Shown piece after piece: positions 6,816 to 58,641 of a stretch of 64,000 nucleotides of DNA. The position numbers and the translations under genes were made by a program. Source of the stretch: a virus (taxonomy: Duplodnaviria; Heunggongvirae; Uroviricota; Caudoviricetes); the IMG/VR virus record IMGVR_UViG_3300030047_000010; one strand, written 5' to 3'. Below the pieces are notes generated by a model. The model made no database searches. It saw nothing but the letters and a program-made list of their open reading frames with translations, and was not told where the DNA came from. Every line of letters begins with the position of its first letter. Position 1 is the stretch's first letter.

Positions 6816-7114
6816 TATTTAGATTCCCATAGAAGCACACGTGTATGTAGAGCATCTACAATATCTAGTAGTACACGTATACTGAAAGCTGAACCACTAG
6901 TTACCATGGCAGAAATAGCTGGGAAATACCAATCAAAAGTAACTAAACCTGTACATAGATGAACAATACCTAGGGCAAAACCAAGATACCAACCTAAGCA
7001 AAGAGGACAAGCAACAGCACGTCCTATTACTTTTGATAGATGAAAAGCTATAGGCGTCTTAACAAAAAGAGCTACCAACCAGCTTAATGCAACAAAATGT
7101 AGATAGATAGTCAT
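6815..7114 (-). CDS. Small integral membrane protein with a CPLCLGWY motif (DUF1360-like)
   Basis: Hydrophobic segments. CPxCxGxW motif as remembered for DUF1360-type membrane proteins. Confidence 0.45.
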   Translation of the reverse strand: MTIYLHFVALSWLVALFVKTPIAFHLSKVIGRAVACPLCLGWYLGFALGIVHLCTGLVTFDWYFPAISAMVTSGSAFSIRVLLDIVDALHTRVLLWESK

Positions 7115-9346: not shown

Positions 9347-9978
9347 CGAGGGAACTTAAACAACAGTTGGGCTAATTCTTTGCCAAAAGAAGCAACGATA
9401 CCCATGATTATTATACCAAGTAAATTGATTAGCCACATTTTACGCTCTAATGTGATTAATCGTTTATCTATATCAGATACCTTTGTAGGAACAGAACGAA
9501 GCTCGCTTCTAGGCATCTCTGCATTCTCTAAATTCTGCTGCTTCATTATTTTATTATCTATCAAGTACTCTATATTCTTAAATGTATCTGCAACTTTTGC
9601 TTGAATGATAGTATCAACACGACCATCAATACCCTCCAAGCGAGCTATAGAATCTTTAAGACTTGAAACTAAGCTACGTAACTCCGCAATACCCTCCGCG
9701 TTAGCATTAGTAATAGTTACTGCGGCAGATAACTTCTCAGCAACGGCTGAATACATATTAGATAAACGCCGTATCTCTTCTTCAAAATGAGTCCGAATCT
9801 GCTGAAGAGCGTACTCGGTACGGTCATTCGCCTCTCTTACAGCTTCATTTATTCTAGAATCAATAGTAGCGATATCATCCTTGATCCTAGATAAATCTTG
9901 AAACATATAAGCACGAATATCAGGATCCACGGGACTGATATTTGCTGCCTCACGATAATCATTGGCATTATGCGACAT
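9343..9978 (-). CDS. Coiled-coil protein with C-terminal transmembrane anchor, 211 aa
   Basis: Heptad-rich sequence with a terminal hydrophobic helix. Confidence 0.5.
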   Translation of the reverse strand: MSHNANDYREAANISPVDPDIRAYMFQDLSRIKDDIATIDSRINEAVREANDRTEYALQQIRTHFEEEIRRLSNMYSAVAEKLSAAVTITNANAEGIAELRSLVSSLKDSIARLEGIDGRVDTIIQAKVADTFKNIEYLIDNKIMKQQNLENAEMPRSELRSVPTKVSDIDKRLITLERKMWLINLLGIIIMGIVASFGKELAQLLFKFPR

Positions 9979-16544: not shown

Positions 16545-16573
16545 AATATACACTACTTGTGTATATTTGTCAA
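16545..16573 (-). promoter_or_regulatory. Sigma70-like promoter TTGACA-N17-TATATT, 6 nt upstream of an ATG (leaderless arrangement)
   Basis: -35 is the reverse complement of 16568-16573; -10 is the reverse complement of 16545-16550. Confidence 0.6.
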
Positions 16574-19112: not shown

Positions 19113-19610
19113 TCAAGCAGCGCCCAAAGATAGCATAAACTTATCCGGAGGACCTTCAATTAAATCGCCATCACTGTTGAAGTAGAAAGAAACGTTCTCC
19201 AGATCATTCTCTTCCTCGGAGACACCCAAGAGCTGTTCCTCCGTAAAAGCATTGGAATTAAATTCCTTGGGCCGCTTTGCCAAGTCAGCGTTCGTAGTAA
19301 TGTGGTACCAATACCCGTGCTCAGACTGACGAAGAGAATCAAACCTCGGAAATGTTTTTGCCATCTGGGATGCAGCAAGAGGATTTTTCAATTGCTCAGT
19401 GAACAACTTCAATGTTGACTGCAAAAGCTTTGAGAGAACCTCTGTGCGATTTTCACCACCAGAGGACTCCTGCAAATTTTTGACCTCACCGGCACTAAAT
19501 GGAAAATAGACCAGCTTAATACCATCTACAACGTAGTCATCTGCGTCATAGGACTGCTCTTTTGTACGATAGGTCTCAGCGCAAAGCACAAAAGTATGAT
19601 TAGATTTCAT
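19113..19610 (-). CDS. Hypothetical protein, 165 aa, coupled to the ARH gene
   Basis: ORF; 11-nt overlap with the upstream gene. Confidence 0.45.
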   Translation of the reverse strand: MKSNHTFVLCAETYRTKEQSYDADDYVVDGIKLVYFPFSAGEVKNLQESSGGENRTEVLSKLLQSTLKLFTEQLKNPLAASQMAKTFPRFDSLRQSEHGYWYHITTNADLAKRPKEFNSNAFTEEQLLGVSEEENDLENVSFYFNSDGDLIEGPPDKFMLSLGAA

Positions 19611-20496
19611 GCTGAAAAATCCTCAAGGATAACAGTTTGATGTCCAAGGTATTGAGAAACTCTAAACCGAAATTTAGATTATCTGCTTTAGCTTCCAACC
19701 CAGTCAGCAAAAATGTAGGATAGAAGCTCTCAACTTCATCAGTCAGAGATGCCAGCCCCAAGGCAACAGCAGCAACGGAATCAGTATCACCCCCGAAAGA
19801 AATAGCCTGCTTCAACATGTCTACAGCCGTATGATTTCCAGAGAGTGCTGTCCAAACTGCTTGGATGGTCTGCTCAGCATCACAGGCTACACGACCGGCA
19901 TCCGCACTGCGCAGTACCAGAGCATAGTGAAGATCGTTCCAAACAATCTTTGGTAGACTCTCAATCTTCTCACCCTGAAGCAGAGCGTGAGACATCAAAC
20001 CAACAACCTGAGATGATAGCCGCCCTATGAACGTATCATGTGTAACTGATGCCTGGATATCGGCAACTCGCAAAACAGTAGCAGCATCATGAAGCAACCC
20101 AAGAGGCACAGAACGCATTAACGCACCATTACGAATGCTGTTAGGTTGGATCCTAGACAGCAGATCTGCACCGTTTTCACAGGTCACCAATAAATCATAG
20201 AAGCGTTCAGCATACCCGCGTCGGGGATCACGCCTAAATGTAGTTACAAAAGCATCAGCAAAAGCTTCTCGCGTGTACGGACCACCAGTGAGCAAAAGCT
20301 CTGCAACAGCGATAGACATTTGGGTATCATCAGTGTAGCAGCCCAAAGGAAGAGCATGGTCACCGCCGAGATGGTGCCTACGGTATTCAGTTACTGTATT
20401 AAGCTGATTGACTTCATCTTGGGGAGCAAACTCAAACCCTGCTCCGTATGCGTCGCCAATAGCAATGTCAAGCAGCATTAGTATCTCCCGCATCAT
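19600..20496 (-). CDS. ADP-ribosyl-glycohydrolase (ARH/DraG family)
   Basis: The motifs GDAYGAGFEF, YTDDTQMS and GGDTDSVAAVALGLA match the three signature regions of the ADP_ribosyl_GH family. Confidence 0.8.
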   Translation of the reverse strand: MMREILMLLDIAIGDAYGAGFEFAPQDEVNQLNTVTEYRRHHLGGDHALPLGCYTDDTQMSIAVAELLLTGGPYTREAFADAFVTTFRRDPRRGYAERFYDLLVTCENGADLLSRIQPNSIRNGALMRSVPLGLLHDAATVLRVADIQASVTHDTFIGRLSSQVVGLMSHALLQGEKIESLPKIVWNDLHYALVLRSADAGRVACDAEQTIQAVWTALSGNHTAVDMLKQAISFGGDTDSVAAVALGLASLTDEVESFYPTFLLTGLEAKADNLNFGLEFLNTLDIKLLSLRIFQHEI

Positions 20497-21686: not shown

Positions 21687-21715
21687 AATTTACATTATTT
21701 ATGTAAATTTGTCAA
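21687..21715 (-). promoter_or_regulatory. Promoter TTGACA-N17-TAAATT. The spacer and -10 form a 9-bp inverted repeat AATTTACAT…ATGTAAATT, a putative operator.
   Basis: Seen directly. The ATG at 21680 lies 6 nt downstream. Confidence 0.55.
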
Positions 21716-21721
21716 CTAGTT

Positions 21722-23866
21722 TTAATAACCGGGACCATTATCATCAGCAAACAAGCTCAACTTCCTAGGTGTTGAGTAGCCTGCGGATGTAATTCTAGAC
21801 TTAGCTGTGTTAGGATTTCCTCTATCTAGATACCGTTGGTACGCTTCTATAGGGTTAGTGCTTGCACCAGAGAAACACCCAAGCACAGCAACACCAGCGC
21901 CACCGAGTCTTCCTGAGCCCAGACCAGCGTTGCGTAACTTTTGCAAAACACGGGGGTCTTGATAAAAGTGAACAGCCAAGCAGAAGGCACGGAATAGGTC
22001 ATCATCACCATACTTTGGTTTTAGTAACTTGCCAGAAATATCACGCACTGTCATGATCTGCAGGATTAATGCGAAATTATTCTTCAAAAACGACTGTTCT
22101 ACAAGATCATCTTCTGTTGATCTGTTCACAAATACGTCCAAACTCACCTCTGATGGAGGTAAGCTTACTTTCATGTTCATGATATCTTGTTTGATTTGAA
22201 TAAAGTCTAAGGGCTTCAATGAGTACTTATGCGCCTCGATATTAGCATCGCGTAATTCTTGCACGTCACCAATAGAATTCCATTGGTCAAAGGCCACTAA
22301 AGCAGTCGTTGTCTGTGTAGCTAAAGGCAAAATGAAATCTCTAAACATCTTACCTAAATTAATCTGCTGATCCTTCTCAGGTTTCAGATACATACAATGG
22401 TCTATCTTTAACTCCCCTGCAGGTGTAGCCGATGCAAGAATACAACCAAAACCGTTATTGTTAAGACCGTAGTCAAAAGACATGATTCTAGGAGTATACG
22501 GATCAAACGCTTTGTTTAATGAATACCAAACAGATGTTTGACCAAAGTTATCAGTGGATATTTCTTTCTTCACAGAAATAACAGGCTTGTCGGATTTCGT
22601 TCGAACACAAGCAATAATGGGTTTTGGGTCGGGCATCCAGGGTGAATCGGCTACTGGTGGTATAGCACCGTAATCACGCAGGGCATTGTCATAGTTCTTT
22701 GCAAACTCTAGTCTAATAAACTCGGAGTCTCTACTGTAGTTGGGATTGAACTCCCATGTAGCCCAGTGACCTGTGAAAATACGTGGTTCATTACGAGATT
22801 TACGAATAGTACGACACATGACATCATTAATGTCAGAAGGACTACTGATATCAAATGCAATACCCATAGGGGTATCATACTCACCACCCTCAAATAACTT
22901 TGTAGCAGCATTACGAATAGTAGCTAAACTATTATTCAAAGACTGCCAAACTTCTTCGGCATCACCCAGTTTCTTAGCCTGAGTTACATCAATTTTAGAG
23001 TCAAACCAGCCAATCTCATCGACTGATGTAAAATACCGTGTGCGCCCACGTAACTTACGACAATCAGGAACAGCACAAGAGATACCTAAGTTTTTATGGT
23101 GGTATGTTGTATACGTAGCATTAGACGTAAACAACTCAATACCCATACGCTTACCAGCATCTCGTAGAAAATCATGATATTCACGATACCATGGAGATTC
23201 ATTACGGTTCGCAATGAACTGCTCCCAGATATTCTGCGTAGCCTGTTCCAAAGTGATAGCTGTAAAACTCATACGAAGGAATGTCGGAGTTAAACCAAAA
23301 AACTTGGATGGAGATACACGATAACCATTACGCTCTAGTGTTAAGTAACGATGATTTTGATAATGTGCAGCAAATACAAGAGCTACGTTTTTGCCTGAAC
23401 GCTGACCGCACAGTAGAGCAGCAGCTTGTGGAAATTTCCAGTCATTAGACTTATAGAAGTCTAATCTAGTTTTCCCGCACTTAGGGCATCTACCGTGATC
23501 CAAAAATTGAATCCTATCTTGAATCTCTCCAAGATCCTGATCATACATATCATACAACAGATCTTGATCACTACAGTCATAACAGGCATCACCAAATAAA
23601 TGAGTAAGTATCTGAATCTGACGAGGGAATGGTGTCGAATTCATAAACTGACGACCCGTACAAAACTCAAATACATTTCGTGCTCTTGGTATCTCTCGCT
23701 CATCCAAAGCTTCAAATACAGATGAGTCTAGATCAGCACTGATTGCTTGGGTAACCAAATCATCCGGATCAAAATCACTTCCGACAGCTTCTGCTTGCGA
23801 ATAAGCCCGTAGATTTTCAAACTCAGAACTTACTATTCTGGTAGCTGATTTCTTTCGTGCAGCCAT
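21722..23866 (-). CDS. terL: Terminase large subunit (putative), 714 aa
   Basis: Walker-A-like GQRSGKN. Walker-B-like FTSVDEIGW. C-terminal RNaseH-like nuclease motifs IMSFDYGLNNNG and LVAFDQWNS. N-terminal Cys4 (CYDC…CPKC). GGAG RBS. Confidence 0.55.
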   Translation of the reverse strand: MAARKKSATRIVSSEFENLRAYSQAEAVGSDFDPDDLVTQAISADLDSSVFEALDEREIPRARNVFEFCTGRQFMNSTPFPRQIQILTHLFGDACYDCSDQDLLYDMYDQDLGEIQDRIQFLDHGRCPKCGKTRLDFYKSNDWKFPQAAALLCGQRSGKNVALVFAAHYQNHRYLTLERNGYRVSPSKFFGLTPTFLRMSFTAITLEQATQNIWEQFIANRNESPWYREYHDFLRDAGKRMGIELFTSNATYTTYHHKNLGISCAVPDCRKLRGRTRYFTSVDEIGWFDSKIDVTQAKKLGDAEEVWQSLNNSLATIRNAATKLFEGGEYDTPMGIAFDISSPSDINDVMCRTIRKSRNEPRIFTGHWATWEFNPNYSRDSEFIRLEFAKNYDNALRDYGAIPPVADSPWMPDPKPIIACVRTKSDKPVISVKKEISTDNFGQTSVWYSLNKAFDPYTPRIMSFDYGLNNNGFGCILASATPAGELKIDHCMYLKPEKDQQINLGKMFRDFILPLATQTTTALVAFDQWNSIGDVQELRDANIEAHKYSLKPLDFIQIKQDIMNMKVSLPPSEVSLDVFVNRSTEDDLVEQSFLKNNFALILQIMTVRDISGKLLKPKYGDDDLFRAFCLAVHFYQDPRVLQKLRNAGLGSGRLGGAGVAVLGCFSGASTNPIEAYQRYLDRGNPNTAKSRITSAGYSTPRKLSLFADDNGPGY

Positions 23867-27882: not shown

Positions 27883-27913
27883 ACGCCCTTAAAGAGGTTG
27901 TTAACAATCCTAC

Positions 27914-27942
27914 TTGACAAAAATACAAATAGAAACTATATT
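27914..27942 (+). promoter_or_regulatory. Sigma70 promoter TTGACA-N17-TATATT driving the plus-strand alarmone-hydrolase gene
   Basis: Exact -35 and -10 hexamers with a 17-nt spacer. AAGGAG RBS and GTG start downstream. Confidence 0.7.
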
Positions 27943-27976
27943 GTAATTGTGAACTAGAACAACAAAGGAGCACACA

Positions 27977-28516
27977 GTGGACACTGTAATCAACTGCACG
28001 CACAGGTACCAAAAAGCTCTCAACTTTGCTATCCGCGCACATAAGGATCAGAAGTATGGGAATCTCCCGTATGCTCAGCATATTCTGAGTGCGTCTACTG
28101 TACTCACCCGCTTCGGTATCTGTCTTGCTGACCCCACCGACGGCATCTATCAACACATGGGAGCTCTTCTACACGACACAGTTGAAGATGCCGGTGTGAA
28201 GTATCGCGAGATTGCCACCGAATTTGGTGAGCGCGTTGCTGAAATCGTCTACTGCGTCACAGATGAAATTGGCCGTAATCGCCATGAGCGACATGAAAAG
28301 ACTTATCCCAAGATCCGTCAGAACAAAGATGCTATCATTGTGAAGCTGGCTGATCGCATCACGAATGCTGAATTCTCGGCTAGCGAACGATCCCGCCAGA
28401 TGGATATGTACAGAACAGAATACAACGATTTTCGTACAGCCCTGTATAATGGCGAGCACGATGATATGTGGAATCATCTGGAGGCTGTCCTCTTCCCTAC
28501 GGGCGAGAAGGTATGA
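27977..28516 (+). CDS. Small alarmone hydrolase: RelA/SpoT-type HD domain protein, a (p)ppGpp pyrophosphohydrolase-like enzyme
   Basis: HD-domain signature …AHKDQKY…H…LLHDTVEDAG…; about 180 aa as in Mesh1/SAH proteins. Confidence 0.75.
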   Translation: MDTVINCTHRYQKALNFAIRAHKDQKYGNLPYAQHILSASTVLTRFGICLADPTDGIYQHMGALLHDTVEDAGVKYREIATEFGERVAEIVYCVTDEIGRNRHERHEKTYPKIRQNKDAIIVKLADRITNAEFSASERSRQMDMYRTEYNDFRTALYNGEHDDMWNHLEAVLFPTGEKV

Positions 28517-28524
28517 GATACGTA

Positions 28525-28553
28525 TTGACAAATATGCAAAATTAATGTATATT
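28525..28553 (+). promoter_or_regulatory. Sigma70 promoter TTGACA-N17-TATATT. Its spacer aatatgcaaaattaatg matches the conserved promoter family.
   Basis: Seen directly. Confidence 0.65.
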
Positions 28554-28585
28554 GTCTGTACTAACTTCCTGAAAGAGGTACAACC

Positions 28586-28864
28586 ATGGAATTCATCGAC
28601 AGTACTCTTTTTGCACTCGCTGTATTTTTTGCAGGTCTCATGGGGATACTTATTGTGTGCCTATGTATCCGAACTTTCTACCGATGGATGCGTAGCTTTG
28701 ATGGCATTGACAGGATGCGCATGGCGCAAGAAGAAGAGGATGGCCCGTGGTTTGAGCACCTAAACAATTTAGATAATGAGGGTTACCAGAAATTTCTAGA
28801 CGATGTCGCAATTCAACGACACGGTGTTTTGACACCAGGATCATTTGCAAGTCATCGTCGATAA
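28586..28864 (+). CDS. Small membrane protein, 92 aa (one TM helix, acidic C-terminal tail)
   Basis: ORF with GAGG RBS, its own promoter and a downstream terminator. Confidence 0.5.
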   Translation: MEFIDSTLFALAVFFAGLMGILIVCLCIRTFYRWMRSFDGIDRMRMAQEEEDGPWFEHLNNLDNEGYQKFLDDVAIQRHGVLTPGSFASHRR

Positions 28865-28869
28865 CCTAG

Positions 28870-29256
28870 CTATAGAAAATCACAAATACTGGGCATTGAG
28901 GGCTGCACGATTCTAACAAAAATGTGCAGCCCTTTTTGTTTAGCATAATTAATCATGTGGCGCGTTCCATGAGATTTGCCATCCCAAAGAGCTAATAAGG
29001 CGTCTGCATGGTCTCCCATAACGCAATTACGCCTAATTCCAGCACGACGATCTAAAGAGCCATCAGATGAACGCCACTCAGCAGGATACTCTTCCACAGG
29101 AATACTTTGTGCTACGGCCCATAATCGACCTAAGGTATCTACACCTTTAGCCATGCCACATAGAACTGTAGACGGTATCCAGCCACAAGAACGAAGAGCG
29201 ATCTCTAGCTCTGACATATCTGTTATGTCACGACTTCCAGCTATGATCGTTCTCAT
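28870..29256 (-). CDS. SLOG/DprA-like Rossmann protein (DUF2493-like), 128 aa
   Basis: IIAGSRD…GMAKGVD…AEW…GIRRN…ADALLALWDG.S.GT pattern typical of the phage DUF2493/SLOG family. Confidence 0.55.
   Translation of the reverse strand: MRTIIAGSRDITDMSELEIALRSCGWIPSTVLCGMAKGVDTLGRLWAVAQSIPVEEYPAEWRSSDGSLDRRAGIRRNCVMGDHADALLALWDGKSHGTRHMINYAKQKGLHIFVRIVQPSMPSICDFL
28898..28941 (+). terminator. Intrinsic terminator. Stem gggctgcac/gtgcagccc followed by TTTTTGTTT.
   Basis: Seen directly. Closes the two-gene plus-strand cassette. Confidence 0.7.
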
Positions 29257-30527
29257 ACAGGAGTCTGATCTTTATCTTTCTCAAGCTGCAATAACGCCAA
29301 CTGCAGCTTTCCCGGCTCCATCCAAACAGTACGACCAAGATCCATAACCGTGTCAAAATCAGCACCAAACTTAGCACCGAGCTCTACAGCACTCTCTGCT
29401 GTAAAATAGTCTAAATACAAGCGCAGATCAATACGACCGGGACGAAGAAGCGCAGGATCTAGAACCTCTGTTCTGTTAGATGATATAATAAAAACAACCC
29501 CCTCAGGCGAGGCGATACCATCTAAAATGCCCAGAAGAGGACCAAGGATGGCAGTTTTCATCAATTTACCAATCTCACCATCAGATGACGCAGGAGGTAA
29601 AACACTAGATTTAGGCATCTCCTCCTCGTCACCCAAGTCTTCTGCTTCCTCCCCATCCTCATCTCCACGGTGCGGCTGAGACTTCTTAGCTTTACCTAGG
29701 CCCTCACGATCAATATCTTCAATAAGAACAACAGAGTTCTTCTGAATGCAGCTACGAACCCTATCTATCTTACCAGACGCTAATGTTGTAGCCGACATAG
29801 AGATCAAAGGGAAATCCAAGTAGGAAGCAATGGCTTGTGCCAAACTTGTCTTGCCTGTTCCGGGAGGACCTTCTAAGAGAATACCTGTTTTGTAGATGAT
29901 ACCGTGTTTAGCATACAAAGGTTTAGCGTTTTTCCACCAATCCAAGTGATGTACAAGCTTCTCGCGCACCTCTGGATCAAGTACAACAGAGTCCAGAGGA
30001 CGCTTCTCTCGAAGAATAATTTGATCACTATGGTCGTCTTCAATTCGTAAGCGCTCTGTATCAAACTCATCAGCAAATAGAGATGCCACTTTTTTTGATA
30101 AAACCTTATGAACATCATGAAAAGCTGTAACCTGTATAACGGGTTCGGAAGTCTGATTACGATCAGAATTCTTCTCGGCATCAGTCAACTCAATCTTGAG
30201 GTGTACACCCCTATATTTAGCATAGTACGTCCCAGCAGGCGGCAATCTTCTAGTTACCTCAAACCCCGAACGATGCCCCTCCCAGAAGGAGGATAGAGTT
30301 GAATGCCTTGTTACATCAAGTATGTGATCATCAACAAGCCACTTAGCCACTAAAGAGTAAGCCAGAGCCGACTCAGACCGTTTAGCAGTGAAGGATGTTG
30401 TCAGTTTACGGAAAAGCTGCTGACGCAATTCAGTCAAAATATAAGTGGTTGCACCAGCAGCTAGAGTAAAAGCGAGAGACTTAACTAGCGTCTTCCCTAG
30501 AGTGTCTTTCGAAGTCAAAATCTGCAT
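29253..30527 (-). CDS. BCS1-like AAA+ ATPase with N-terminal hydrophobic segment
   Basis: Walker A GILLEGPPGTGKTS. Walker B VVLIEDIDR. GILDGI…SNRTEVLDPALLRPGRID as in the BCS1 family. AGGAGA RBS at the internal ATG at 30527. Confidence 0.75.
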   Translation of the reverse strand: MQILTSKDTLGKTLVKSLAFTLAAGATTYILTELRQQLFRKLTTSFTAKRSESALAYSLVAKWLVDDHILDVTRHSTLSSFWEGHRSGFEVTRRLPPAGTYYAKYRGVHLKIELTDAEKNSDRNQTSEPVIQVTAFHDVHKVLSKKVASLFADEFDTERLRIEDDHSDQIILREKRPLDSVVLDPEVREKLVHHLDWWKNAKPLYAKHGIIYKTGILLEGPPGTGKTSLAQAIASYLDFPLISMSATTLASGKIDRVRSCIQKNSVVLIEDIDREGLGKAKKSQPHRGDEDGEEAEDLGDEEEMPKSSVLPPASSDGEIGKLMKTAILGPLLGILDGIASPEGVVFIISSNRTEVLDPALLRPGRIDLRLYLDYFTAESAVELGAKFGADFDTVMDLGRTVWMEPGKLQLALLQLEKDKDQTPV

Positions 30528-31011
30528 CGGATCTCCTGAGCGTAGTTCTGACACGAGATAGACGGTTATGCATTACAGAGGCATCACGGTCTACCTTGCG
30601 ACGTTTGGCCTTCAAGTCGGCCACCTGATTCCCTAACAATTTACGCGCAATATCAGAATCAGAATCAGAAATTTCTAGCTCTAGATCTTGGATATCTGAA
30701 TCATAAGACTGCAAACGTTCGGTCAATCGTTCATAAGCAGCCGACAGTTTTGCACCAACTTTAGTTTTTATAGAACCAGCCAAGCGTGCCTCTAAAACAA
30801 CGACTTCAGGGACGCCAAGCTCTGGACAGTTATGTAGAAGCCAAGTAACTTGTGCTTTTGCGGGTCCCGCAGTTAAGTACACTTGAGCATTATGTATATC
30901 AGTTACCCAGTTCTTATCCACCAAGCTACCACGAGATTTGAAGTATCTACCATCAGCAGCCTTAACAATAAAAAACTCAAGAACAGGTTCTTGAGGTCGC
31001 TTCTTTGACAT
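30481..31011 (-). CDS. Hypothetical protein, 176 aa (N-terminal globular part plus acidic coiled-coil tail)
   Basis: ORF in operon. Confidence 0.45.
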   Translation of the reverse strand: MSKKRPQEPVLEFFIVKAADGRYFKSRGSLVDKNWVTDIHNAQVYLTAGPAKAQVTWLLHNCPELGVPEVVVLEARLAGSIKTKVGAKLSAAYERLTERLQSYDSDIQDLELEISDSDSDIARKLLGNQVADLKAKRRKVDRDASVMHNRLSRVRTTLRRSDADFDFERHSREDAS

Positions 31012-31028
31012 AAGAGCACCTCGATTAT

Positions 31029-31391
31029 TTAATCAAGCATTAACTCAGCAGCAAATCTCTGAACGATAGCTGCTACCTTACTAAGGGAAAAAGGTTTGCG
31101 TAAGATATGCTGAATATAAAGACTCCTCTCAAGTGAAGAGATATCCGAAGCACCTGTCATCACAATTACAGGCACGGCTGGAAACAGTGTAGAAGCAGCC
31201 TCAGCTAACTGCAACCCAGAGTAACCAGGCATTTCATAATCTGTAATCAGGAGATCAATAAGATGCTGTTGTTGCATGTAATCAAAAGCCTCACTAGAAT
31301 CACCAAAAGCAGTAACTGTATGAACCAGGGACAAGTATTCTGTAATGCCAGAAAGGATGTCTAGGCTGTCATCTACAATTAAGAGCTTCAT
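31029..31391 (-). CDS. Stand-alone CheY-like response-regulator receiver (REC) domain protein, about 120 aa
   Basis: DD acidic pocket (LLIVDDS), phospho-acceptor Asp (LLITDYEMPG), conserved Thr (IVMTG) and Lys-Pro (RKPF). AGGAGA RBS. Confidence 0.7.
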   Translation of the reverse strand: MKLLIVDDSLDILSGITEYLSLVHTVTAFGDSSEAFDYMQQQHLIDLLITDYEMPGYSGLQLAEAASTLFPAVPVIVMTGASDISSLERSLYIQHILRKPFSLSKVAAIVQRFAAELMLD

Positions 31392-31420
31392 CAGTATCTC
31401 CTGATCACCCCAAGAAGTAT

Positions 31421-31456
31421 AAACCAAAAAGGATCTACCAACATTGGTAGATCCTT
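31421..31456 (-). terminator. Intrinsic terminator. A 12-bp stem (aaggatctacca/tggtagatcctt) with a 4-nt loop, followed by UUUUUGGUUU.
   Basis: Seen directly, between the SPFH gene and the REC gene. Confidence 0.75.
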
Positions 31457-31485
31457 AGTATAGCATTACATAGATGCACTGTCAA
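31457..31485 (-). promoter_or_regulatory. Promoter TTGACA-N17-TATACT. Its -10 abuts the terminator hairpin, so the predicted TSS falls inside the 5' arm.
   Basis: Seen directly. Confidence 0.5.
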
Positions 31486-31499
31486 TCACTTTGGTAGAA

Positions 31500-32402
31500 C
31501 TACTTGTGATGCTTACCTGAAGCTGCAGCAGCGCTAGTTGGCAACTGCACAATCACACCGCCGCCAGCCCCAGATACAACCTGAGGATTGGCACCATTCC
31601 AGGCATTGGCCTTGATGTAGTCAATGAGCTCAGGTGTGATGGACGAAGCGATGCGTCGATTGGATTCTGCCTCACCTGCGGCTGCAATAACCTTGCTACT
31701 GGAATCCATACGAGCCGTCTGGATCTTAGCCTGTGAAGCAGCAGCCTTCTGTGCCTCAATAGCCTTGCTAGAGATAGACTCAGCATACTTAGCATCCGTA
31801 GGTGCCAAGTCGCCAAGAACAAAAACCTCAACCTGAACCACACCAAGACCAGCAACCTGACGAGTAAGCGATGCCTGGATACTGTCAAACAGAGTAGAGA
31901 CACCAGCACCAATCAGAGTAGTAGCCGAATCCTTACCCCCGTAATAGATCAGATCCTTACGAAGGATATTGCGGAATACCCGCTGATTGATCTCGTTCAA
32001 ACCACCACGATACAACTGGAACAGATGAGGCACATAGCGAGGATCCAAGTTATACGAAACACCAACATCAGCACGGAACTGAATACCATCGGCAGACTTG
32101 AAGACAAAAGACTCATCAGTCTTACTGTCCTCATCCGGAGACTTCACGAAGTTCTTCGTCTGTCGGAACGTCGGATACAGATACACATGCTGATTGAAAG
32201 TCGGCCAGATCGTGCCAGGGTACACCACGTTCTTTTCCACACCAGCATTCGAGCCGTACTTGTCTACGACGATGCCAACATTGCCTGGCGGGATATTCTT
32301 CGGAGTTCGAATGATACCTCCGTACAGCAAACCCAAGAGGACCACAAGAGCGGCAATACCCGCAATACCCGCAATGAGGTCTGCCTTCAACGACCTATTC
32401 AT
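31500..32402 (-). CDS. SPFH/band-7 (stomatin/prohibitin/HflK-C-like) membrane protein, about 300 aa
   Basis: N-terminal TM helix, SPFH core, and a C-terminal Ala/Gln-rich coiled coil. Confidence 0.7.
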   Translation of the reverse strand: MNRSLKADLIAGIAGIAALVVLLGLLYGGIIRTPKNIPPGNVGIVVDKYGSNAGVEKNVVYPGTIWPTFNQHVYLYPTFRQTKNFVKSPDEDSKTDESFVFKSADGIQFRADVGVSYNLDPRYVPHLFQLYRGGLNEINQRVFRNILRKDLIYYGGKDSATTLIGAGVSTLFDSIQASLTRQVAGLGVVQVEVFVLGDLAPTDAKYAESISSKAIEAQKAAASQAKIQTARMDSSSKVIAAAGEAESNRRIASSITPELIDYIKANAWNGANPQVVSGAGGGVIVQLPTSAAAASGKHHK

Positions 32403-32643
32403 GATTACTATCCTTTCTTTCTGTGTTGGTGGAAACCCAGTGAATTGCATAGATTGCTCCAGCAAGCACACCGAGGATGGTAGCGACCGGCCAAGCGATC
32501 ACCAAAGTATCATTACGTGACGACATGCAGTAAGGGCCAACAACCCCCAACCACAAGATGATCACAAGAGCTGCTACAGCAGCCAAAGTAAGACGAAGAA
32601 TCAAATTAGGAGACTTATCATCTCTAGAACTAGCTGTTGGCAT
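32395..32643 (-). CDS. Small two-TM membrane protein, about 82 aa, translationally coupled upstream of the SPFH gene (NfeD/YqiJ-like partner position)
   Basis: AAGGAA RBS; 8-nt overlap with the SPFH start. Confidence 0.45.
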   Translation of the reverse strand: MPTASSRDDKSPNLILRLTLAAVAALVIILWLGVVGPYCMSSRNDTLVIAWPVATILGVLAGAIYAIHWVSTNTERKDSNHE

Positions 32644-32673
32644 TGATTTCCTTATGCTGTTGAGTGTTAGTAA

Positions 32674-32702
32674 AAGATACACTTAACTTGCATACTTGTC
32701 AA
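32674..32702 (-). promoter_or_regulatory. Promoter TTGACA-N17-TATCTT for the membrane-protein/SPFH operon
   Basis: Seen directly. Confidence 0.5.
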
Positions 32703-32710
32703 GCCCTACG

Positions 32711-33232
32711 TCAAATTATCTTAGATAAAGACAAGTAGTTCTTATGCAAGAAGAAACATGCCATATCTAGCGCAAGACAGGATTCCCATGGATCCTCCTG
32801 CTCAGCAAAAAGGTCGTGAGATAGAGCACGATACTCCACCAGCAAAGCGGAACAGTGACTCCACAAAAAATACAAACAGCAAGACCAACCAGAACTATTG
32901 ATTATAATCCCGAGTATCTGGAGCAGAGCACTTCCAGTAGGAAACAACATATAACCAGTGCAGGCAACCGCAAACATGCCAACAACGCTTGCAACGAAAG
33001 TACAGGCAAGTCGCAGTAGAATCCTATTCAAGCACTTCTGAAGCAATGTTGAGTACACAGACTTATCCAAAGTAGCCCCTAAAGAAACTAAAATACCGTC
33101 GCCTGTAAGCCAAAAGAACAGAACTACGAGCCCGATACACAGAAGCTCGCCATGCAGGCCAACTGTTCTCAGAACGTTCCTGGAGAAGGAACAAACCCTG
33201 CCTTTGTTGAAACTTTGCAGCACTTCGAGCAA
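32711..33232 (-). CDS. Hydrophobic Cys-rich membrane protein. Frame and start uncertain: it overlaps the next ORF in another frame.
   Basis: ORF only. Confidence 0.3.
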   Translation of the reverse strand: MLEVLQSFNKGRVCSFSRNVLRTVGLHGELLCIGLVVLFFWLTGDGILVSLGATLDKSVYSTLLQKCLNRILLRLACTFVASVVGMFAVACTGYMLFPTGSALLQILGIIINSSGWSCCLYFLWSHCSALLVEYRALSHDLFAEQEDPWESCLALDMACFFLHKNYLSLSKII

Positions 33233-33458
33233 AGGGTAAACACACTAAGGGACACGCGCAGGATAGAAGCATAAAGCACAGATATGAAATAAGTGCCACA
33301 TGATACAGGCAGAGAAGGAAGAAGAAGACGCTACAAGGCAAGACAACAGATAAAATAGCCAACTCGTAGCAACGGGAGATAGCCGAGTCTGAGCAATCAC
33401 GCAGTAGTGCTAAATAGTAGTTTCTACTTTCTACCAGATCGGGATCATATAAGGACAT
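33063..33458 (-). CDS. Hydrophobic Cys-rich membrane protein, 131 aa
   Basis: ORF with an upstream promoter. Confidence 0.35.
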   Translation of the reverse strand: MSLYDPDLVESRNYYLALLRDCSDSAISRCYELAILSVVLPCSVFFFLLCLYHVALISYLCFMLLSCACPLVCLPFARSAAKFQQRQGLFLLQERSENSWPAWRASVYRARSSVLLAYRRRYFSFFRGYFG

Positions 33459-33517: not shown

Positions 33518-33546
33518 AAGTTACACTAAGTATGTACCTCTGTCAA
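33518..33546 (-). promoter_or_regulatory. Promoter TTGACA-N17-TAACTT
   Basis: Seen directly. Confidence 0.45.
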
Positions 33547-43418: not shown

Positions 43419-45218
43419 TCAAGGCAACTGTAAACATTTTGTCCACGACTTATCCACATTGTAGCTTTTTAGCGCTGTGATCAATCCAAAAATATAAGGA
43501 CGCTCAAAAGCAACGCCTATATCGAACAAATGAAAGAAGATAGGAAGATCTTCTGTTGTATACTGCTGGAGAATACTGACTAGAGTAGGTAGATACGAAA
43601 CAGCATAGGACGGGTCAAAGTCAGAGGGGCACTGCTCTAAAAGCATACGAGCTAAAGAACTTGAGCTATCCACAGGAAACAGATCTGAGTTCATAAGCAA
43701 CACAGGATTCAGTGATGTTAGAATCTGCAGAATAACACCAAGATCACGATATTTATGTGCAACAAGATCCAAATAAGAGAACGACTCTAGTGCAGAGTCA
43801 AAAACAGTAGGAACATACTTAGCGTAGTCGGGCAAATCTAAAATATCAACACCAGTGTCTACTAGGGCACCTAAGAACTCAGAAGGATCCATATGCGTTG
43901 GTACCATATGCAGGGCAGTATACACAGATATTACATCAGCTAGATTACATTTCGCTAACGCTCTGCGCAGAGCTATTGCAGTTGAAGCATCATGCGATAA
44001 TGCTAAAACACGACCCACAGCCTTAGATGTAACATCGGAAGCCAGTACATAAAATACAGAGGGACATGCTGTAAGCAGATACAACAAAGCCTTATTAGAA
44101 GAAACTAAATCCAACAGCGAGAATACTATCCAAAAGACATTACGATCAGCTTTAGGCGAGATAGTAAACTTAAAGTTACCACCCACACCTGTCGTTAGCA
44201 ACGCATACAAAGAGTCGCGGTAAATACCGGATAAATCATCTGTAGAGCATGCCGTGATCGCATAGCTGCCGGCATTAGACTTAGTGGCTGAGAGCGTTAA
44301 ATGATCACGCAGCGCTGTTCTTGCATAAGCATCGGAAGGGGGAGGAACGTCAATATGGCATTGATTTCCATCCAACTTCAAACGAACATGGGTAGACACA
44401 GAGCTAATAGGACTCAAACTAGCTATCCTCAGTAGCTTATTCACATAGTCACTTTTCAGGGCTTCTGGATCGCATGCAACAGATACCGCCCAAGCCAGTC
44501 TCCGAGCAACTACCAAAACATCCTTAGCTTTTTTATGGTAGTCAGCACCACCAATTAATCTAAATTCAATATAGTTTTTAGATTTTATCTTTGTAAAATT
44601 AAAGCTAAAATACTTATCCCACGGAATAACATGCTCCGTACTGCTAGATACAGGATACAAAGGTCTTTTTACTAGCTCTTTTATCTGATCTGTAACGTCA
44701 TGAAAAGAACTCAAATAATCAGATACAAAAGGCTCTAGACGCTGAGCATAGTCATTGTCAAAGCGAGCAAACATCTGAGCTATATGAGCTTCGCCAATAA
44801 ACACAACCAGTTTTAAGACATCAAGAGTCTCAGACAGATCTACACCATCCAAGCTAACACCAATATGAAAACCGCAGCTTTCATTAGTTCCACCAAAGGC
44901 ATCTATAAAATCAAAAACATGTTCAACAGAAGAACTGAACTGCGGGTACGATAATATAGGAGATACAACCTCAACGCCCTGGGCAGACGTATTGGGTATT
45001 TGTATGGTACTGTCATCTGTTAAATTCCAGTAAGAGTAATTAGGATGTTGAAGTTTACCCTCACCGAGCTGATCATTGATACGACTATGATGTCCTACGA
45101 ATTTAGATAAGGCTGTACCTACATCCAAATGAACAGACTGCAATTTGCGCGTATCTAAGAAACACTCAGCTTCAAACCCCATACGTGTATGACCTAGTTT
45201 AACAGGCTTTGTATTCAT
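43419..45218 (-). CDS. Amidoligase-domain protein, paralog 1 (599 aa). The N-terminal ~300 aa have GS/GCS2-like carboxylate-amine ligase motifs: GFEAE, EVVSPIL, CGFHIGVS and YIEFRLIGGADY.
   Basis: Shares the motif set with the three upstream giant paralogs. Confidence 0.6.
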   Translation of the reverse strand: MNTKPVKLGHTRMGFEAECFLDTRKLQSVHLDVGTALSKFVGHHSRINDQLGEGKLQHPNYSYWNLTDDSTIQIPNTSAQGVEVVSPILSYPQFSSSVEHVFDFIDAFGGTNESCGFHIGVSLDGVDLSETLDVLKLVVFIGEAHIAQMFARFDNDYAQRLEPFVSDYLSSFHDVTDQIKELVKRPLYPVSSSTEHVIPWDKYFSFNFTKIKSKNYIEFRLIGGADYHKKAKDVLVVARRLAWAVSVACDPEALKSDYVNKLLRIASLSPISSVSTHVRLKLDGNQCHIDVPPPSDAYARTALRDHLTLSATKSNAGSYAITACSTDDLSGIYRDSLYALLTTGVGGNFKFTISPKADRNVFWIVFSLLDLVSSNKALLYLLTACPSVFYVLASDVTSKAVGRVLALSHDASTAIALRRALAKCNLADVISVYTALHMVPTHMDPSEFLGALVDTGVDILDLPDYAKYVPTVFDSALESFSYLDLVAHKYRDLGVILQILTSLNPVLLMNSDLFPVDSSSSLARMLLEQCPSDFDPSYAVSYLPTLVSILQQYTTEDLPIFFHLFDIGVAFERPYIFGLITALKSYNVDKSWTKCLQLP

Positions 45219-45235
45219 AGGATAATTATTCCTAG

Positions 45236-48200
45236 CTACTTACAAAAGTTTTCAAAGAAATTATGCAGGTATGCGGTTGTTGACAGATTCTTAGCCACAT
45301 AGCGAAGCAACGGATAAGGCATATTGGGATCTAAAACACGCACGTGATTAACAGGATCAAACTCAACAAGACCTCGGGCAAATTTATGCAACAGAAGCTT
45401 AATAGAAGACTCTGTCCTAGGATCAGCATACCTTCCTGGTATCTCATTTACTAATGTTTTATAAAATCCCAAAGATCTCTCAGATAACAGGATAGATGGA
45501 TTAACAAAAGCTGCAAAATAACCAAGCATCACTAAGTAATCTTTAGTATCAAAGGTCACAGGACCTAGCTTAGTATCAGGAGATAACAGCAAATAGAAAA
45601 AATCACTCCAAGTATAACCGTACACTCTATGTGTCGTACTAGAACTGTGTGTCTCTGCTTTAGCGTCTGACACCAGAGCAAGCACTAAGTTGGTAGTAAA
45701 ATCTGGGTATTTAAGACCCTCTAATAGTACCTCAGGTTTAATCAAGCGATTCCCCTGATCATCCATCGGGTATATAGACGCAGATGTCAACAGACCAAAA
45801 CCCATAGCTTTAACAACGGGTGCTCCCGACTGTATCTTCACAAAAAGATCAGGCATATCTTCAGCAGGCATAGCTTCAACAGCACCAAAGAAGTCAGATT
45901 TATGAAACGGAGGGTTTGCAATATAAGAAATTGTATCTTCTACAGATCTACGCTCACCACGAGATGGTTGAAAGGGTGCAGAGAACTCATGAACATAGGG
46001 TGCTGTCTCATGCTGTAACTCTTTAGTAGCTATTGGTGCCACATCACGCACATCAAAACCCGCACGTCTAAGAGACTCAATGCGATTAGTCAAAAAGCCA
46101 TTCTCATTAGTAGGGTCAACAGACTTACTCTTATAGGTTGAGAACACTTTATCCAGCAATAAACAGTGTGGCGCTATCTCGGTTATGTAGGAAGATGCTA
46201 CAAAGGCGTCTACTGTCATTGCCAACGCCTTAAACGTAGGCTCAAAAATAAAGCCTTTCTCAAAAAACGCAGTTAGTATTTTAACACCTGCCTCATTCAA
46301 CAAAGGTACATAGATACTTGGAGGAGCATCCATTGCACCATTAGTGATACCACCACTACTGGCAGAACTCACATAAGTTAAGTAGGCACGCATAAATGCT
46401 GGCAACTCTTTAGACGCAGCACTACTAGATAAAATCTTATGGAATAACTCGTTAGCATAACTACTATGTAATACTGTGGTATAAATAGTATCTACGTCAC
46501 CCCAGCTAAGAACAGATAACAAGTGTTTGTCAAATTCATGCAGCGCGGATGTAAACCAAAATGCGATACCCGCATTATGCAGTATCTCATTCTCAACAAG
46601 GGAACCGTGAACGTTTTCATAATTAGCAAGCCAACCAGATACTAATTTTATGCAGAAATCATCATCATCAATAAAATCTTCTGTTTTAATATAACTCAAT
46701 ACGTCGGGACCATTAAAAAAAGCAGAAATGCTGTCTCTAGGATAGTTCTGATTCTTAAGTCCAACGAGTATCTCATTTATCGTGTGCATATCAGGATGCA
46801 GATTAATACCAGGTATATTTGTTATACCTATCTCGTTCAGTTCTGCGTTAGATAAATCTAACGTTAAGGCATTACGAGGAAACGTCTCGGATGCACGCCA
46901 ACCGCCGTGATCTTTGATTATCTGAATTAAAGCAGGACGCACCTCAGAAGCAAAACCCAGTTTATTTATTACACCATAAATAAAACCAAGGTTCATTTCT
47001 GCCACATCTCTTCTCATGAATAATGCATCAACTTTAGCTGTATCAGACAGTACTTCTTGTACAAAAGCATGGCTAGCCTGTGACGCATTTACTAAATAAC
47101 CCTTCGTAGCTAAAGAACTTAGCAGCATCTTAGCATCTACTGAGTCACTCGCCACAAAAGCGGCTTCAGCTATCTTACCAACAAAACTAGAGGTAATACC
47201 AGACGGTATCATACCATACTGCAAGATACCACGAAGAGCACTCAAATAAGAATCAGAGATACCGTCTTTAGGTTCTACACCAAAACCAGCAAGGAAGTAA
47301 TCTAAATAAACAGGATGATCAAGAAAGTAATCTTTATTATAGATTACATAAGGATCTGAATCACCACCATGTTGAGATAAGAAGAAACCTAAGTTAGCAT
47401 ATGAACAACCAGCAGCACCCCGAGGTCCTACAGCCATAGTAGAAATAATGGAAAACAGTATATCTGTACAATTTGAATTTTCTGCAAGAGCCTGCATAGT
47501 AAACTGAGAAAGCTGCACGCTCGTAGTTAACCCAAATAGATGTAACAATGTTTCAGTATACTTACCGTAAGCCAATCTCTGCGAAGATCCATGGTCCAGC
47601 GTTAGCAAGACTTCCGGCTTTAAGCTGAACTCGTGACTCCCGAGAGAAATGCTTCGACCACCATACTTCTCAGCCAACGCCTCTATCTGACTCTCTATCT
47701 CAGATGAGAATCCAGCAGCAGGATTATCCGCCTCTATGTGCGTAAGGCTACTTCCAGTATAAATGAAACTAAATAACCGAACACGACTCTGATCCATATT
47801 TGCAGGAAAATCTACTAAAGAGAATCCATGGGTATTTGCTATAGCTTTAACACGATGGTCATCCTCATGAGTAGCTTCTTTATACTTATCTAGGAACTTG
47901 TACAATTTAAGTGCAAAAACATCATCATAAGCATCACAGGTTGATGCGTACAAAGCATAAGCAAACCTACGAGCTACACGTGCTAATAATGAAAACTTGT
48001 GCTCATAACCAGCACCACCAGGCAACCTAAACTCGATACGCTGCTTATCGGGGAAGTCTTTCTGGCTAACTATATTGGAAATATTAATAGTACCATAGCG
48101 ACCAATGTCATCACTGCGCATCTCTTGATAGAACTTATCAAGATCAAACTGTTGCATGCTCTTCATGCCAGAAGAACGAGACAATTCAGCTACCATAGCG

Positions 48201-48763
48201 AGCAAAGCAGGCTTTACAGATTTTGCATAGCTTGTATCATTACGCCCAAAAACCAATCTCCAGTAATCCTCACCCAGCAACAGGTACAGCTTAGCAACAT
48301 TGACCTTAGTTAGGTTAGTATCCTCTAGACTGAATGTTATATGCAATCCAGTAGAGTTATTTGAAATAGCTAGAGCCTTACCACTCTGCTTAGTTGCCAT
48401 CAACGAGCAGACCTTCTCCAAAGACCCCAGCATAGCATCTATTCCAAGTATCGGGGAGACTACTTCAATCTGACACTGGTGCTCCGGATCAACCTGAATT
48501 GATGTGTCTGACTCTACCGACCAATAGCGGTAATCCCCATCATGAGATGCGCCGTAACGCTCACTTACAACTATGCTACTCCTATTGATGCCTAGAGCCA
48601 ATTGTAACTTATCTGCAAAATCAGACCACCATAAAGCAGAAGCCATTTCAGCTTCAAAGCCGCAGCGAACAGCAGGACCCTTATACTTAGACCAGTCAGA
48701 ACTAATACTATGAAGATCTCTATCGAACTGAGATGCCGTTACAACAGTATAATCAGTCGCCAT
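45236..48763 (-). CDS. Giant amidoligase-domain protein, paralog 2 (about 1176 aa from MATDYTVV…). Motifs: RCGFEAE, YGASHDG, WSVESDTSI, EVVSPIL, TGLHITFS, RIEFRLPGGAGY and RFAYALYAS.
   Basis: Motifs conserved across four tandem genes; divergent helical C-terminal ~850 aa. Confidence 0.65.
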   Translation of the reverse strand: MATDYTVVTASQFDRDLHSISSDWSKYKGPAVRCGFEAEMASALWWSDFADKLQLALGINRSSIVVSERYGASHDGDYRYWSVESDTSIQVDPEHQCQIEVVSPILGIDAMLGSLEKVCSLMATKQSGKALAISNNSTGLHITFSLEDTNLTKVNVAKLYLLLGEDYWRLVFGRNDTSYAKSVKPALLAMVAELSRSSGMKSMQQFDLDKFYQEMRSDDIGRYGTINISNIVSQKDFPDKQRIEFRLPGGAGYEHKFSLLARVARRFAYALYASTCDAYDDVFALKLYKFLDKYKEATHEDDHRVKAIANTHGFSLVDFPANMDQSRVRLFSFIYTGSSLTHIEADNPAAGFSSEIESQIEALAEKYGGRSISLGSHEFSLKPEVLLTLDHGSSQRLAYGKYTETLLHLFGLTTSVQLSQFTMQALAENSNCTDILFSIISTMAVGPRGAAGCSYANLGFFLSQHGGDSDPYVIYNKDYFLDHPVYLDYFLAGFGVEPKDGISDSYLSALRGILQYGMIPSGITSSFVGKIAEAAFVASDSVDAKMLLSSLATKGYLVNASQASHAFVQEVLSDTAKVDALFMRRDVAEMNLGFIYGVINKLGFASEVRPALIQIIKDHGGWRASETFPRNALTLDLSNAELNEIGITNIPGINLHPDMHTINEILVGLKNQNYPRDSISAFFNGPDVLSYIKTEDFIDDDDFCIKLVSGWLANYENVHGSLVENEILHNAGIAFWFTSALHEFDKHLLSVLSWGDVDTIYTTVLHSSYANELFHKILSSSAASKELPAFMRAYLTYVSSASSGGITNGAMDAPPSIYVPLLNEAGVKILTAFFEKGFIFEPTFKALAMTVDAFVASSYITEIAPHCLLLDKVFSTYKSKSVDPTNENGFLTNRIESLRRAGFDVRDVAPIATKELQHETAPYVHEFSAPFQPSRGERRSVEDTISYIANPPFHKSDFFGAVEAMPAEDMPDLFVKIQSGAPVVKAMGFGLLTSASIYPMDDQGNRLIKPEVLLEGLKYPDFTTNLVLALVSDAKAETHSSSTTHRVYGYTWSDFFYLLLSPDTKLGPVTFDTKDYLVMLGYFAAFVNPSILLSERSLGFYKTLVNEIPGRYADPRTESSIKLLLHKFARGLVEFDPVNHVRVLDPNMPYPLLRYVAKNLSTTAYLHNFFENFCK

Positions 48764-52601: not shown

Positions 52602-52614
52602 ATCAAGAAGTGGT

Positions 52615-58612: not shown

Positions 58613-58641
58613 AATATACATTAATTTTGTATGAATGTCAA
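58613..58641 (-). promoter_or_regulatory. Conserved promoter element, copy B: TTGACAttcatacaaaattaatgTATATT
   Basis: Seen directly. Confidence 0.65.

Follow-up and report, generated by a model that had tools for sequence, protein, structure and literature searches.

A conserved receiver, X, and Bcs1-like ATPase operon beside a small alarmone hydrolase gene in a clade of uncultivated jumbo phages

We describe a block of small genes in a 64,000-nucleotide stretch of phage DNA (hereafter the window), taken from the IMG/VR virus record IMGVR_UViG_3300030047_000010 (Caudoviricetes). At the core of this block lies a three-gene operon that encodes a stand-alone receiver domain (REC), a protein of a new family (X), and a Bcs1-like AAA+ ATPase (AAA). 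Around it stand genes for a small alarmone hydrolase-like protein of the HD type (HD), a small protein with one transmembrane (TM) helix, a YAcAr protein of the SLOG fold (SLOG), and a probable SPFH/Band-7 protein (SPFH) with a two-TM partner (Table 1). The REC-X-AAA operon is the invariant unit of the block, being collinear in six of six lineages (the window, L089, L001, L003, L005, and L007), among which AAA identities range from 43 to 88%. We tentatively read REC, X, and AAA as a phospho-gated, membrane-associated machine of the Bcs1 type, accompanied by an independent alarmone hydrolase; this is the reading we favour, and we regard it as possible rather than probable. New here are the operon of receiver, X, and Bcs1-like ATPase, the family to which X belongs, and the arrangement of promoters and terminator; the component classes are already catalogued in jumbo phages (Iyer et al. 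2021, PMC7824862).

The five further metagenomic lineages were reached via their AAA homologues, whose identities to the window are approximately 87-88% in L089, 71% in L001/L002, 47% in L005, 44% in L003, and 43% in L007. All belong to one jumbo-phage clade (large terminase, TerL, 78-96% identical), and in all the block has the same position, between a 973-aa gene (p973) and a run of 334-aa (p334), 157-, 127-, 106-, and 172-aa genes toward the terminase, the L007 sequence ending past the 334-aa gene. A gap of 17 nt separates REC from X, while the overlap of the X stop with the AAA start measures 47 nt in the window and 20-35 nt in three relatives. The preliminary description of this DNA had regarded the block as variable accessory cargo. 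This idea does not survive the comparison, since the block is collinear in all five relatives and HD is as conserved as the flanking genes (HD 66-89%, p334 64-91%, and p973 57-83% when L089 is included). The elements that do vary are the SPFH/two-TM pair and the hydrophobic open reading frames (ORFs) at the left edge.

The same description had placed SLOG at the end of a fixed REC-X-AAA-SLOG operon, an arrangement that proves to be lineage-specific. Only the window, L089, and L001 have SLOG after AAA, the start of the former overlapping the stop of the latter by 4 nt. In the other three of the six lineages (L003, L005, and L007) it lies on the opposite strand, within a leftward operon of HD, the small-TM gene, a 131-146-aa gene, and SLOG that is convergent with REC-X-AAA and an 83-89-aa gene. 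Two genes in these lineages (L003 11363-12464, L005 5963-6979, and L007 11252-12418) are extra, being absent from the window: the 83-89-aa gene after AAA, and the 131-146-aa gene between the small-TM gene and SLOG. SLOG, AAA, and REC thus occur together in the six lineages of the clade, but not at remoter AAA loci. Within the sequence available, REC, X, and SLOG are absent around the AAA homologues of L009 (40% identical), L011 (29%), Erwinia phage pEa_SNUABM_54, Pseudomonas phage Noxifer, and 63 IMG/VR loci. Among these loci, only L009 has an HD protein of the small alarmone hydrolase (SAH) type, 3 kb from AAA. A linkage of AAA with HD past the clade, considered for an HD gene adjacent to AAA in L011, was rejected, as a profile hidden Markov model does not place that protein in the SAH type.

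The first gene of the operon encodes a canonical stand-alone receiver, in agreement with the preliminary assignment. REC matches Pfam Response_reg at 5.2e-16 (59.2 bits against a gathering cut-off of 30.2), and its acidic pair (DD), phospho-acceptor Asp, and Lys-Pro align with those of CheY and do not change across five lineages. REC also has the beta4 Thr (MTG), one column off in the automatic alignment with CheY. REC is nonetheless the most diverged gene of the block, being only 68% identical between the window and L089 (10001-10360 in the latter), with invariant phospho-acceptor residues. Such divergence around a constant pocket fits a chemistry that is kept while the protein surface adapts to differing partners. 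Canonical, phosphorylatable receivers that stand alone are nearly missing from deposited phages: 10 of 50,697 phage records contain a match, and at least half of these look like bacterial NtrC. The NCBIfam matches of REC include CpdR (6e-11) and RssB (7.7e-9), which are weak, far under the family cut-offs, and found among many other families.

The second gene encodes X, which has no match in Pfam or PHROGs. A profile search of 1.84 billion representative proteins recovered at least 193 clusters at 50% identity (E<=1e-3), mostly of 75-250 aa, that have a common N-terminal domain with the consensus YVVRN.DGK.FR.KG..G.G..WVD.I..AKIY.K.GPA...VT.W..NYP.YG.P. None of the 40 members tested matches Pfam or PHROGs in this domain. 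By profile similarity, X is a member of a previously undescribed and sizeable phage protein family. An AlphaFold 2 model of X predicts an alpha/beta N-terminal domain (residues 10-80), for which no fold match was found, and behind it a long antiparallel helical hairpin. At the turn of this hairpin, where its two helices meet, lies a motif, ISxSDSDVVRK, that is specific to the clade and missing from the wider family. Outside the clade, X-family genes lie among small hypothetical or miscellaneous phage genes and have no AAA+ or REC neighbour. When metagenomes were scanned with the clade alignment of X, four distant X-family loci emerged, and none of them has REC or AAA in its vicinity. Only in this clade, therefore, is X linked to REC and AAA. 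L009 and phage Noxifer have genes upstream of AAA (181 aa and 176 aa) that were considered as possible X-family members, but these were rejected (hmmsearch E>1).

The third gene encodes a protein that we assign to the Bcs1-type ATPases. AAA matches Pfam AAA at 7.7e-19 and phrog_7485 at 5.6e-47. It is collinear with residues 77-400 of yeast Bcs1, including the Bcs1-specific middle domain; in phmmer, residues 36-275 of AAA align to residues 77-324 of Bcs1 at 3.4e-26. The Pfam BCS1_N domain falls under its cut-off here (E 0.0074), and most remoter database homologues carry it (PF08740). The protein is laid out as a weakly hydrophobic N-terminal helix, the middle domain, and a single AAA module, and its Walker A (GPPGTGKT), Walker B (VVLIEDID), sensor-1 (N351), and arginine-finger (R362/R365) residues do not vary among 15 clade sequences. 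Aligned to Bcs1, the segment from Walker A to Walker B holds no aromatic pore loop. The preliminary description had called AAA membrane-anchored and BCS1-like. The second part holds, while the anchor is marginal: the best 19-aa Kyte-Doolittle window of the N-terminal helix scores 1.3, against 1.6-2.2 in the relatives P0005-P0007, P0010, and P0015. Between Walker B and the sensor-1 region, at approximately residues 276-316, AAA has an acidic insert that varies from ~10 to 65 aa across the clade and has no counterpart in yeast Bcs1.

AAA homologues that are 23-34% identical occur in 123 phage records, including jumbo phages of Erwinia, Pseudomonas, Brevundimonas, and Caulobacter. Scans of IMG/VR with the AAA protein, the AAA clade alignment, and a p334 alignment yielded no further clade member, and the generic AAA relatives they returned are 22-45% identical over the best segment. 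The earlier suggestion that the operon matches no named system is borne out. PADLOC gives local matches to the AAA core only, to IetA (54.7 bits, residues 123-253) and TRIP13, and the NCBIfam IteA model scores 43.7 bits against a cut-off of 510. With such local matches and neither an IetS nor a HORMA partner present, AAA was ruled out as part of an IetAS system or as the TRIP13 component of a cyclic-oligonucleotide-based anti-phage signalling system (CBASS).

The transcriptional architecture of the block sets it apart from its surroundings. Sites of the form TTGACA-N16-18-TATNNT occur eight times in the window against 0.9 expected, a count reached in none of 100 shuffles, and when the palindromic spacer motif ATRCA-N7-TGYAT is added there are nine matches against 0.23 expected. 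The extended consensus is TTGACA-N3-ATRCA-N7-TGYAT-ATT, in which the palindromic spacer could be an operator. Five or six matches are intergenic within the 5.6-kb block (27.9-33.55 kb), lying before HD, the one-TM gene, REC, the two-TM/SPFH pair, and the edge ORF. Outside the block, sites occur just past the terminase gene and before small genes at 16.5 and 57-59 kb. The large genes around the block have no such promoters, and equivalent sites occur in the relatives. Because a promoter precedes each short gene group, the block can be viewed as five short, separately promoted units among large genes. To this extent the earlier term island is apt, although not in its sense of variable cargo. The family probably marks a distinct, early class of short transcription units, and the promoters of the block suggest early-type expression by the host RNA polymerase.

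A GC-rich hairpin with a T-run, resembling a terminator, stands directly upstream of REC. It is kept in six lineages, and six of eight stem positions show pairs in which both sides have changed. The retention of this structure with compensatory changes argues that REC-X-AAA is a transcription unit of its own, separate from SPFH. In the window, L089, and L001 the REC promoter abuts the hairpin, which places the predicted start of transcription within the 5′ arm. RNA begun at this promoter would consequently not form the terminator.

These observations bear on an alternative, namely that the block is a collection of unrelated early genes, adjacent only through shared ancestry in a young clade and forming no functional system. 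The six lineages are a single clade, so that shared history alone could account for their synteny, the genes are not found together outside it, and X-family genes elsewhere stand amid miscellaneous small genes. Against this, the block was rearranged by an inversion of SLOG, by gains and losses of genes, and by the disappearance of the SPFH pair, yet REC-X-AAA stayed contiguous at identities down to 36-45%, with frames that overlap or nearly abut and a conserved upstream terminator. We consider such purely historical adjacency unlikely.

Under the phospho-gated reading that we favour, REC would receive its phosphoryl group from a histidine kinase of the host, from an Hpt protein, or from acetyl-phosphate, and would act in trans on the Bcs1-like ATPase, through or together with the alpha/beta head and helical hairpin of X. 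This control would be analogous to the gating of ClpXP by CpdR and RssB. The ATPase would move or remodel folded proteins at the inner membrane rather than unfold them by threading, since the lack of an aromatic pore loop, as in mitochondrial Bcs1, makes folded-protein remodelling the likelier activity. The SPFH/two-TM pair may scaffold the machine in the membrane, but is dispensable because it was lost in one lineage. HD would act independently, most likely removing (p)ppGpp/(p)ppApp or the tRNA 3′-pyrophosphate made by toxSAS-type defences, so that the infected cell stays metabolically active. SLOG would be a partner that binds or processes a nucleotide ligand, with an operon affiliation that switches between lineages. 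The gene order, its conservation, the domains with their catalytic motifs, and the promoter motifs are observed; the physical coupling of REC, X, and AAA is inferred, and so are the source of the phosphoryl group, what the ATPase acts on, its place at the membrane, and when the genes are expressed.

Several observations weigh against this reading. The link between REC, X, and AAA is operon membership only, and since remoter AAA homologues occur without REC and X, the ATPase can work without them. No HisKA, HATPase_c, or Hpt domain was found among the 50 other ORFs of the window (64 kb of a ~376-kb genome) or among the called genes of the related loci. The N-terminal helix of AAA scores under the usual TM threshold, and the promoter sites are consensus matches only. 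Moreover, the window is a piece of a jumbo phage of ~376 kb that, like its host, is uncultivated.

We also speculate, while judging it quite improbable, that the phage wiretaps a two-component phosphorelay of its host: a phage-encoded canonical receiver, whose surfaces evolve fast so as to match host kinases, would use the X hairpin as a novel adaptor and, early in infection, switch on a Bcs1-type machine that translocates or remodels folded proteins at the inner membrane. If so, REC-X-AAA would represent a viral AAA+ machine of a new, phospho-gated class, with X as the founder of a new adaptor family.

HD was proposed to be a (p)ppGpp-hydrolase-type HD protein, and the matches agree. Pfam HD_4 is found at 3.9e-11 (43.4 bits, cut-off 27.2) over residues 14-145 of 179, as the sole domain and without a synthetase domain. 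TIGR00691 (spoT_relA) matches at 2.9e-14 in its N-terminal hydrolase region only, and phrog_990 at 7e-33. The best PDB relatives are Mesh1 and bacterial SAHs (1.2e-10), and the HDxxED motif is present, LLHDTVED aligning with LLHDVVED of Drosophila Mesh1 (PDB 3nqw). Homologues in cultured phages are only ~30-36% identical. By these matches HD is a bona fide SAH-type hydrolase, predicted to hydrolyse (p)ppGpp/(p)ppApp. Directly downstream of it in every lineage lies the gene for the one-TM protein (homologues 32-77% identical), whose single strong N-terminal TM segment agrees with its initial description as a small membrane protein. SLOG was likewise correctly placed in the SLOG/DUF2493 group, matching PF10686 (YAcAr) at 1.7e-9 with 37.8 bits (gathering cut-off 28.2) over residues 1-62 and phrog_289 at 5.8e-26 over residues 1-122; a sequence search found no homologue of solved structure.

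The preliminary description had interpreted the whole set as a toolkit for host-signalling takeover or anti-defence. In such a system HD would degrade alarmone-type immune signals, SLOG would sequester or cleave nucleotide signals, REC would intercept a phosphorelay, and AAA and SPFH would counter membrane-targeting effectors. In favour of this, HD is of the SAH type and phage SAHs neutralise toxSAS toxins, PaSpo of phage SSU5 being an example (PMC9712102), and both HD-alarmone phosphodiesterases and YAcAr domains have been noted in jumbo phages, among their predicted counter-nucleotide functions (PMC7824862). The block genes also remain neighbours in six lineages, and an ADP-ribosylglycohydrolase is encoded 8 kb away. 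However, apart from generic domains the components show no match to any known family of defence or anti-defence proteins, and nothing ties REC or AAA to nucleotide signals. The switching of SLOG between operons and the loss of the SPFH pair indicate that this is not a single co-regulated unit, and strong conservation within the clade is untypical of anti-defence cargo with fast turnover. Specific support is limited to the anti-toxSAS activity known for phage SAHs, and an integrated toolkit seems to us an improbable account of the block.

At the far side of the REC terminator stands the SPFH pair, also recognised in the preliminary description. SPFH matches phrog_200 at 6e-48 and has a TM segment with a Kyte-Doolittle score of 2.6. 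A precomputed Band_7 match (E<=1e-5) exists for the identical 300-aa product and its homologues, with a weak prohibitin-2 match (E=0.0036), while hmmscan of the longer 323-aa ORF gave no Pfam match. The partner consists of two TM segments only, with no Pfam match to NfeD. In L007 the pair is missing. Beyond it, the variable edge of the block holds two hydrophobic ORFs, o131 and orf173, which are in different frames, overlap by ~170 nt, and are 73% and 44% identical to their L089 counterparts, respectively. A Cpta_toxin-like match of o131 is weak and under the cut-off (E 0.0019). The gene caller used for the source contig left 32643-33063 empty, and a small membrane-protein gene may be missed there.

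The surroundings of the block raise a further alternative, that of virion assembly. An X product identical to ours is encoded on a 375.6-kb metagenomic contig (ena:ERZ27248704 k141_1405120) with the same gene order. The window carries nearly all of its genes on the minus strand, including TerL (phrog_17415, 4e-116) and a portal gene (phrog_16240, 2e-112); TerL is only ~30% identical to the terminases of PaBG-like and Erwinia jumbo phages. Block DNA had zero matches in 50,697 phage records by near or distant search modes. Searches of the phages by tblastn with the flanking p334 and p973 likewise returned nothing, so that no outgroup without the block is identifiable. The Bcs1-like ATPase might be a chaperone or translocase of folded capsid-bound proteins at the membrane, with REC and X as lineage-specific regulators and the block belonging functionally with packaging and morphogenesis genes: BCS1 orthologues have been noted across jumbo-phage groups and proposed for membrane-proximal assembly (PMC7824862), and TerL and the portal gene, which share the strand of the block, are only 4 kb and ~16 kb away from it, in a position fixed throughout the clade. 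We think this role quite unlikely, because sigma70-like promoters and a terminator belong to the block itself and set it apart from the large flanking genes, for which there is no recognised structural annotation, and because in cultured jumbo phages the AAA homologue is surrounded by small hypothetical genes or lies close to genes of DNA metabolism (ligase, thymidylate synthase), and no gene annotated as structural occurs within 5 kb of it.

Table 1. Features of the block, its flanks, and its regulatory sites. Positions are those of the window unless a lineage is named, and identities are percentages relative to the window.
Feature	Position	Strand	Basis or remark	Identity, L001, L003, L005, and L007	Identity, L089
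HD, RSH-type, stand-alone, SAH-like, 179 aa	27977-28516	+	Pfam, NCBIfam, PDB, and PHROG matches	66-86	89
Small protein, 92 aa, one N-terminal TM helix, acidic tail	28586-28864	+	Kyte-Doolittle 2.85		
SLOG, YAcAr (DUF2493) SLOG-fold protein, 128 aa	28870-29256	-	PF10686, phrog_289	51-64	
AAA, Bcs1-like AAA+ ATPase, 424 aa (ORF reaches 30554 via GTG start)	29253-30527	-	Pfam, phmmer, PHROG	43-71	87
X, member of new family, 176 aa	30481-31011	-	Overlaps AAA start by 47 nt	45-74	97
REC, CheY-type receiver, stand-alone, 120 aa (ORF reaches 31427 via TTG start)	31029-31391	-	Response_reg	36-53	68
Terminator-like 12-bp stem-loop and T-run, between SPFH and REC	31429-31456	-	Sequence, six-lineage comparison		
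The same hairpin in relatives	L089 ~9940-9975, L001 ~6795-6825, L003 ~9047-9075, L005 ~3685-3720, L007 ~9080-9105				
SPFH, probable SPFH/Band-7 protein, 300 aa, N-terminal TM helix	31500-32402	-	phrog_200	42-84	95
Two-TM protein, 82 aa	32395-32643	-	Two hydrophobic segments; overlaps SPFH start by 8 nt		
Variable block edge, overlapping hydrophobic ORFs o131 (33063-33458) and orf173 (32711-33232)	32711-33458	-	ORF list, L089 comparison		
Sigma70-like promoter TTGACA-17-TATATT, upstream of HD	27914-27942	+	Counterpart in same position in L001 and L014		
Sigma70-like promoter with palindromic spacer, upstream of one-TM gene	28525-28553	+	Motif match		
Sigma70-like promoter TTGACA-17-TATACT, TG-extended, abutting hairpin	31457-31485	-	Motif match		
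Sigma70-like promoter upstream of two-TM/SPFH pair	32674-32702	-	Motif match		
Promoter-family member, two mismatches, just downstream of 973-aa gene, left block border	33521-33546	-	Motif match		
Further promoter-family sites	16548-16573, 21690-21715, 57523-57548, 58616-58641, 58870-58895	-	Motif match		
TerL, large terminase	21722-23866		phrog_17415	78-92	
Portal	9984-12128		phrog_16240		
p334 (flank)				64-85	
p973 (flank)				57-76	

All eight ORFs of the preliminary description were found in place, with plausible Shine-Dalgarno-like ribosome-binding sites. The likeliest starts trim four of them relative to the longest form (AAA to 424, REC to 120, SPFH to 300, and the two-TM partner to 82 aa), in agreement with the gene calls on the source contig. 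The window contains no tRNAs, and a search of 27.5-33.7 kb against Rfam found zero families. Elsewhere in the window, an ADP-ribosylglycohydrolase gene (19600-20496, minus strand; PF03747, 1e-35) lies ~1.2 kb downstream of the terminase gene and is kept in L001; its product is a possible counter to ADP-ribosylating defences. An unusual array of tandem paralogues at 43419-56424 (minus strand) encodes four large proteins in series (599, 1180, 1282, and 1269 aa), each with an N-terminal Amidoligase_2 domain (PF12224/phrog_2443). Single Pfam matches elsewhere among the 50 scanned ORFs are Pyr_excise (8e-13), Radical_SAM (2e-7), and Rubrerythrin (2e-4).

If a receiver is indeed wired firmly into an AAA+ machine, a virus would be reading host kinase signalling directly and thereby setting the timing of a process at the membrane. 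Many jumbo phages carry Bcs1-like ATPases, and the REC-X-AAA operon, comprising three small soluble or semi-soluble proteins, provides a testable handle on them. That the block genes are clade-core rather than shuffled cargo also changes their priority in anti-defence screens.

Comparison with known systems places each component in context. CpdR and RssB gate ClpXP, and in both cases a single-domain or receiver-led protein controls an AAA+ machine through its phosphorylation state. The resemblance of REC to these proteins is one of analogy only, and the AAA+ partner here is Bcs1-like rather than ClpX. HflK/C-FtsH is an SPFH cage around a membrane-anchored AAA+ protein, and here too a TM-anchored SPFH gene stands directly upstream of, and co-oriented with, the gene for a putatively membrane-anchored AAA+ protein. 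Unlike in HflK/C-FtsH, however, a separate promoter and terminator serve the SPFH pair, which L007 has lost, the partner is a bare two-TM peptide rather than NfeD or HflC, and AAA is without a protease domain.

HD resembles Mesh1, bacterial SAHs, and PaSpo of SSU5 in being a stand-alone RSH hydrolase domain of ~180 aa with HDxxED, and differs from them in that its gene always lies beside that of a one-TM small protein. SLOG belongs to the YAcAr family (PF10686; phrog_289), scoring over the Pfam gathering cut-off, and members of this family have been recorded in jumbo phages before. Here the domain stands alone, whereas the YAcAr domains of other jumbo phages have been described in fusions with Macro, NADAR, or Nudix domains.

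Mitochondrial Bcs1 is a heptameric translocase of the folded Rieske protein (PDB 6sh3, 6uko). AAA shares with it the collinearity already described, a (here weakly) hydrophobic N-terminal helix at the position of the TM anchor, and the lack of an aromatic pore loop; it differs in being ~25-30% identical, with BCS1_N under the cut-off and a marginal TM helix. The closest parallels are the BCS1 orthologues of jumbo phages (PMC7824862; phrog_7485), with which AAA shares the Bcs1 middle domain and the single AAA module. None of the cultured-phage and IMG/VR loci examined has REC, X, HD, or SLOG near its AAA gene. Unlike these orthologues, the AAA of the window stands in an operon with a canonical receiver and X, and carries an acidic insert after Walker B.

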